Part shown: piece by piece, positions 9,452-9,873 of the stretch
Position numbering within the stretch: position 1 is the first letter of the stretch
Layout of the letters: the number at the start of each line of letters is the position of its first letter
DNA from: Escherichia coli 042
Lineage (GTDB): Bacteria > Pseudomonadota > Gammaproteobacteria > Enterobacterales > Enterobacteriaceae
Length of the DNA: 64,000 nucleotides
Assembly: GCF_000027125.1 (NCBI RefSeq)
Contig: NC_017626.1
Direction: 5' to 3' (one strand)
Notes under the pieces: model-generated
What the model was told of the DNA's origin: nothing
The model's database searches: none
Seen by the model: the letters and a program-made list of their open reading frames with translations, nothing else
Translations under genes and position numbers: made by a program

Positions 9452-9873
9452 CCTCGCGCATACAACCGGGCAGTGATGTGATTGTCTGCGCTGAAATGGA
9501 CGAACAGTGGGGCTACGTCGGTGCTAAATCACGTCAGCGCTGGCTGTTTTACGCGTATGACAGGATACGGAGGACGGTTGTGGCGCACGTCTTCGGTGAA
9601 CGCACTCTGGCCACACTGGAGCGTCTTCTGAGCCTGCTGTCGGCCTTTGAGGTCGTGGTATAGATGACGGATGGCTGGCCGCTGTATGAATCACGCCTGA
9701 AGGGAAAGCTGCACGTTATCAGCAAGCGTTACACTCAGCGCATTGAGCGACATAATCTGAATCTGAGACAACATCTGGCAAGGCTGGGACGGAAGTTACT
9801 GTCGTTCTCAAAATCGGTGGAGTTGCATGACAAGGTCATCGGGCATTATCTGAACATAAAACACTATCAGTAA
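9370..9873 (+). pseudogene. insB: IS1 insB frame interrupted by in-frame TAG
   Basis: InsB frame reads ...[19 protein letters not shown]; stop TAG at 9661-9663 where copy b encodes W (TGG). Track splits it into 9370..9663 and 9664..9873. Confidence 0.75.

Follow-up and report, generated by a model that had tools for sequence, protein, structure and literature searches.

An amber codon in insB' of an IS1F element beside fecI: a known defect of the isoform and its probable origin

The window analyzed here, a stretch of 64,000 nucleotides, carries two oppositely oriented IS1 copies separated by 37.8 kb, which we refer to as copy a and copy b (Table 1). Copy a is flanked by ykiE/fecI on the left and by remnants of IS3-family elements on the right. 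A terminal-repeat search of the window, with the left inverted repeat (IRL) of copy a itself as query pattern, returned one element on the plus strand (9121-9888; 0 mismatches in the IRL and 3 in the IRR) plus a left end on the minus strand at 48461-48483. A repeat finder paired 9161-9888 with 47717-48444 at 90% identity.

Table 1. Features of the two IS1 copies in the window.
Feature	Position	Strand	Basis
IS1F element (copy a), 768 bp	9121..9888	+	Terminal-repeat search; 766/768 to MG1655 IS1F
IRL, GGTAATGCTGCCAACTTACTGAT	9121..9143	+	Terminal-repeat search
Sigma-70-like promoter match, inside/just after IRL	9128..9155	+	Consensus scan only; expected IS1 promoter position
insA, intact, GTG start, 91 aa	9176..9451	+	ORF list; Pfam Zn_ribbon_InsA, HTH_Tnp_IS1
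A6C slippery motif, in TTAAAAAACTC (9425-9435), programmed -1 frameshift from insA to insB'	9427..9433	+	Read from sequence
5' part of insB', -1 frame, InsAB' residues 86-162	9430..9660	+	Pfam DDE_Tnp_IS1 positions 1-61 of 131
Amber codon TAG, W163*	9661..9663	+	Window letters, ORF list, alignment, frameshift translation
Stranded 3' part of insB', residues 164-232 (MTDGW...HYQ), ends TAA	9664..9873	+	ORF; DDE_Tnp_IS1 63-131
IRR	9866..9888	-	Terminal-repeat search
Copy b, IS1A-like, 767 bp, insA and insB' frames open, TGG	47717-48483	-	Repeat pairing, alignment

The insA product is the IS1 repressor and also forms the N-terminal part of the transposase. InsA of copy a matches Pfam Zn_ribbon_InsA (9e-20) and HTH_Tnp_IS1 (1e-26), the A6C motif is invariant between copies a and b, and, with W163 put back, the frameshift fusion of copy a gives a match of 1e-72 to NCBIfam transpos_IS1. 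In its size and terminal repeats, its insA domains and its A6C motif with insB', copy a is an IS1 element; a complete DDE_Tnp_IS1 domain, on the other hand, is missing, the match being cut at profile position 61 of 131. Copy a therefore belongs to the IS1 family as a defective, not autonomous, member. No direct target duplication of 8-9 bp was found at copy a, whose flanks read GGGGATTTC on the left and TCCTCCCGA on the right, which would fit an old insertion followed by rearrangement next to it.

An earlier note, made from the letters of the window, had reported an in-frame stop in insB of copy a. This is borne out by both the reading frame and the alignment. According to the window letters and the ORF list, the TAG closes the open reading frame 9370..9663, that is, the insB frame of copy a. 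Alignment of the two copies places it at element nt 541-543, where copy b has TGG (Trp). The difference is a single transition, G542A, resulting in W163* of the 232-aa frameshift transposase InsAB'. When the -1 frameshift translation was reconstructed, copy b and K-12 IS1A each yielded 232 aa, while the product of copy a stopped at codon 163, W163* being the sole interruption of its 232-codon frame. Compared with the IS1A/IS1E protein, copy a has 15 substitutions plus the stop.

The 162-aa product retains the InsA zinc ribbon, the HTH and, as scored by Pfam, positions 1-61 of the 131 positions of DDE_Tnp_IS1, positions 63-131 being matched by the 69 residues stranded downstream of the stop. 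W163* thus removes positions 62-131; whatever the assignment of the triad residues, the truncated protein has less than half of the catalytic domain left. When the motif attributed to Ohta et al. 2002 is mapped onto the protein, the first catalytic Asp, presumably D109 in AEMDEQW, is retained, while what we take to be the second Asp, D166 (MTDGW), and the Glu, E191 (RIERHN), are lost. Because insA, the A6C site, both terminal repeats and the promoter-like site at the IRL are all intact, copy a should still make InsA and still serve as a substrate for transposase. The IRL is likewise intact in all IS1F copies compared.

Comparison with reference isoforms, which the earlier note had proposed as a check, identified copy a as IS1F, a divergent IS1 isoform that adjoins ykiE/fecI and borders the ferric-citrate (fec) island of E. 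coli. It shares 766/768 bases with the IS1F of K-12 MG1655 (4518472-4519239), the type IV IS1 of K-12, and has the same ykiE/fecI left flank and the same TAG at nt 541-543. The K-12 element is GenBank X52538 (Umeda and Ohtsubo 1991). Of the two differing positions, nt 156 changes InsA residue 34 (His in copy a, as in IS1A; Pro in K-12 IS1F), while nt 160 is synonymous. The consensus autonomous IS1 of K-12, IS1A/IS1E, has the same 768-bp layout of terminal repeats, insA, A6C and insB' as copy a, but diverges from it by 9.5% at the DNA level, differs by one base in the IRL, encodes an intact transposase and moves natively. The 73 mismatches between copy a and K-12 IS1A (about 90% identity) equal the count published for IS1F (PMC12428005).

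Curated annotation points the same way. In K-12, insA7 (b4294) is a gene and insB7 (b4576) a pseudogene; PGAP, in three further complete genomes, names this element "IS1-like element IS1F family transposase" or "IS1 family transposase" and adds the remark "programmed frameshift; internal stop". The earlier note's proposal that copy a is transposase-defective is accordingly supported on two counts, the truncated catalytic domain and this curation. The stop is a known defect of IS1F, and finding it here is correct but ordinary.

The two elements differ on their right side, where K-12 IS1F runs straight into yjhU, while the window, as well as 1,600 other genomes, keeps the IS3-family remnants. 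The stretch 9889-10200, whose counterparts in other genomes are annotated as a hypothetical protein with a frameshift and a fragment of an IS3-family transposase, is absent from K-12, which suggests that an IS1F-adjacent deletion may have occurred in K-12. On the left side, codon 20 of fecI (minus strand) is altered at window position 8827, where the G of K-12 and of the best-matching genomes checked is replaced by A; the result is FecI H20Y. As the segment 8621-10388 had no match at 100% identity in the genome collection, this change appears to be either private to the source strain or an error.

The mobility of IS1F has been addressed by experiment in K-12. In BW25113, all sequenced IS1 insertions originated from IS1A/IS1E, and in a derivative whose sole remaining IS1 copies were IS1B, C, D and F, essentially no IS1 insertions were obtained in two targets over 14 days (PMC12428005). 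When a consensus InsAB' was over-expressed in trans in that background, the silent copies were mobilized, IS1F making up 44% of 48 sequenced insertions; at native levels, by contrast, the IS1 transposase shows a strong cis preference (PMC12903888). Trans-mobilization has been shown by experiment only for K-12 IS1F (PMC12903888), which differs from copy a by 2 nt. These results lend support to the earlier note's suggestion that copy a depends on InsAB' acting in trans. Consistently, IS1F is single-copy in MG1655, W3110, DH10B, BL21(DE3) and REL606, and insA7 of K-12 IS1F is transcribed according to RNA-seq (PMC6462304). Among 47,877 repository plasmids, at most five contain IS1F, versus 363 for IS1A (PMC8867978). 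One of the two 2025 papers on IS1 mobility describes the reason why silent copies fail to transpose as unknown, and text-term searches of both papers turned up no reference to the IS1F stop (PMC12428005, PMC12903888). Copy a resembles mini-IS1 constructs and MITE-like elements in having intact ends and no working transposase. Unlike these, however, it has its full length, with no internal deletion, and still encodes InsA, and IS1F, single-copy in the K-12 and B strains, has not amplified.

A stop of this kind may be leaky or bypassed, either by UAG read-through, by an amber suppressor (supE/glnV44) or by re-initiation at the ATG that directly follows the TAG (9664), with the two fragments assembling. 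Strains carrying supE insert Gln at UAG, and the 69 codons downstream of the stop are open; we know of no read-through signal for IS1. The occasional IS1F insertions in laboratory plasmids (PMC8867978) would agree with bypass, but are explained equally well by trans mobilization driven by IS1A-type copies, which are numerous in these hosts. Moreover, the lack of insertions in the BW25113 derivative (PMC12428005) and the persistence of IS1F as a single copy in K-12 and B strains (PMC6462304) both speak against a functional bypass, to which we attach very little credence.

Hardly any more plausible is the idea that the TAG element has been kept as a useful repressor locus, expressing InsA alone or InsA together with truncated InsAB' and damping IS1, the stop then being a form of domestication. 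The truncated product retains the zinc finger and HTH, none of the 13 IS1F copies compared, 8 of them TAG copies, has a disrupted insA, insA7 is transcribed (PMC6462304) and the TAG allele is very common. However, linkage to the fec island accounts for this frequency, and InsA is already supplied by every intact IS1 copy. Additionally, some TAG copies carry damaging changes, namely InsA C8Y in the zinc finger (L020), InsA G74D (L010) and a further stop, Q90*, in insB (L007), which looks like drift, and the substitutions are too few for a test of selection.

Copy b is the only possible source of InsAB' within the window. It differs from K-12 IS1A by four substitutions and one missing T; at 48440-48444 (element nt 40-44, between the IRL and the insA start) it has four T instead of the five in K-12 IS1A. 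It carries InsA V17G and InsAB' S130R, and in genomes sharing its junction the element is labeled 'IS1-like element IS1A family transposase'. Because of the strong cis preference of the IS1 transposase, copy b is unlikely to act as helper in practice, and at native transposase levels copy a is effectively immobile.

The earlier note's term left-hand IS1 for copy a suggests a composite element with copy b. On that view the two copies would bound an IS1 transposon of 39 kb, the defective left arm relying on the intact right one. Although the two copies are inverted and the reading frames of copy b are open, we reject this arrangement as next to impossible, since the copies are different isoforms with only 90% identity, no target duplication is shared (GGGGATTTC left of copy a versus CAGTTGATG beyond copy b), their junctions are distributed independently (2,596 genomes for copy a versus 306 complete E. 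coli genomes for copy b) and what lies between them is ordinary DNA of the chromosome and of islands, for the most part collinear with a strain that lacks copy b. The two copies are unrelated events. Two segments of the interval, 18617-19942 and 30131-31462, match one and the same IS3-family transposase region of strain CV839-06 (L015, 40434-43089) at 95.4% and 99.7%, in opposite orientations, and therefore represent two inverted IS3-family copies in the island between the IS1 copies.

Copy b has a history of its own. When its flanks (43526-47716 and 48484-54493) were compared with the otherwise largely collinear CV839-06, copy b was found to replace 8.85 kb reaching from upstream of fimB into fimH. 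Deleted are fimB, fimE, fimA, fimI, fimC, fimD, fimF and fimG, along with the 5' part of fimH, of whose product the C-terminus alone remains (ORF 48487..48654). To judge from this comparison, copy b lies at the site of an IS1-associated deletion that took out the type 1 fimbrial operon, and the strain should be without type 1 fimbriae.

An error of sequencing or assembly, the circumstance under which the earlier note would have withdrawn its claim, or a private recent mutation of the strain can be set aside as the source of the TAG with near certainty, because the same base is present in K-12 MG1655, CV839-06, 504239, AR_0058 and a fec contig labeled K. oxytoca, and the complete-genome E. coli collection has 2,304 records with the exact 75-mer around it (9606-9680). 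In a further 3,405 records of this collection the best match to the 75-mer has 1-3 mismatches. The ykiE-IS1F junction is found in 2,596/5,426 genomes, about 300 of which lack the exact TAG 75-mer.

Intact elements of the IS1F family exist. They belong to the same isoform, lie within 5-9 nt of copy a, have TGG at codon 163 and, the plasmid copies described below included, carry annotations as intact frameshift transposases. An IS1F-type element of E. coli strain 139 (WP_223718721.1), 5 nt from copy a and with TGG, is annotated as an intact frameshift transposase; another, in MNCRE44, also has TGG and lies in a disrupted gene with an 8-bp direct duplication on its flanks, such as a simple insertion leaves. 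On two plasmids carrying fec, E. coli p89_MLI108-3 and a plasmid of Shigella flexneri STLE4, IS1F occupies the identical site with both flanks identical and has TGG. Because these two plasmid fec loci keep TGG at the same IS1F site, G542A most likely arose in place, after an intact IS1F had inserted beside fecI. This order of events rests on parsimony. The 13 IS1F copies tabulated arrange themselves from TGG with C677/C703, through TAG with C677/C703 (fec contig, L009) and TAG with T677 (L007), to TAG with T677/T703 (K-12 and the window).

Codon substitutions relative to IS1A are in line with this order. The dN/dS ratio is 0.096 for insA, 0.146 for insB' upstream of the stop and 0.015 for the 69 codons downstream of it, where 16 synonymous changes contrast with 1 non-synonymous change. 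The latter, S208L (nt 677), does not occur in any of the TGG copies compared, nor in the four TAG copies with C677. The low downstream ratio and the confinement of S208L to part of the TAG lineage point to a stop that is young relative to the split between the isoforms. Alternatively, the stop could have entered the fec copy by gene conversion, as a mosaic IS1 bearing the TAG exists (L018, described below).

Two IS1F-type copies have an independent second hit in insB', Q90* (nt 322) in the TAG copy of AR_0058 (L007) and R192* (element nt 628) in a TGG copy on Citrobacter pBM527-4 (L012). Inactivation of the IS1F isoform has happened more than once.

The TAG allele also occurs away from fec. 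The exact 75-mer is present in 26 plasmid records, of which 7 have the ykiE junction. Ten plasmid records were inspected; two are fec contigs and eight have a TAG-bearing IS1F at other sites. These comprise an mcr-10 plasmid of Enterobacter roggenkampii, a place next to hlyCA, one next to hicAB (three plasmids, same site), pS65EC, pYLMB51b and one truncated fragment (L021), amounting to at least 5 distinct non-fec plasmid sites. Target duplications were sought at seven non-fec TAG copies (L010, L011, L017/L019/L022, L018, L020) and at the truncated fragment L021, and none was found. The copy on pS65EC (L018; NZ_CP036244.1, locus 1516-2283) is a mosaic IS1 in which the first ~300 nt are IS1A-like or of a different type (IRL GGTGATG...), while the remainder, from about nt 300 onward and including the TAG, is of the IS1F type. 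As read from its sequence, this mosaic shows directly that IS1 isoforms have recombined. Because target duplications are lacking at the non-fec sites and one copy is mosaic, homologous recombination between IS1 copies would account for the spread of the TAG allele beyond fec as well as trans-mobilized transposition or cointegrate resolution would. A more far-reaching proposal holds that TAG-bearing IS1F is a natural non-autonomous IS1 that uses the transposase of other isoforms, its more symmetrical ends being preferred, as they are under over-production of InsAB', with the non-fec sites as instances of natural trans-mobilization and with InsA and InsAB'(1-162) damping the helpers. We regard this extended scenario as improbable, if somewhat less so than either bypass of the stop or a selected repressor function.

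The reading we favor, with a probability of roughly 0.93, is that copy a is an IS1F beside fec with an old, inherited nonsense mutation, G542A (W163*), and that it is catalytically dead and movable only by InsAB' supplied by others. In the proposed course of events, an IS1F would have inserted beside fecI, G542A would have arisen in place afterwards, and the mutated element would then have been carried along with the fec island. Copy a would make InsA and, after frameshifting, a 162-aa fragment that is predicted to bind DNA but to be catalytically dead. It presumably cannot move by itself and would be moved only by InsAB' from another IS1 copy; given the cis preference of the transposase, such movement in trans would be expected at appreciable rates only when transposase is abundant. 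None of the observations contradicts this explanation; the mobility experiments on which it draws concern K-12 IS1F, which has Pro34 in InsA where copy a has His34.

As the curated reason why insB7 has pseudogene status in the K-12 reference, and one that the NCBI pipeline marks in all genomes carrying it, the stop in itself matters little. Nevertheless, W163* removes most of the catalytic domain and thereby offers a simple explanation for the immobility of IS1F, and the same-site elements with TGG on two fec plasmids date the defect after the insertion and provide a natural matched pair of an intact and a defective IS1F.
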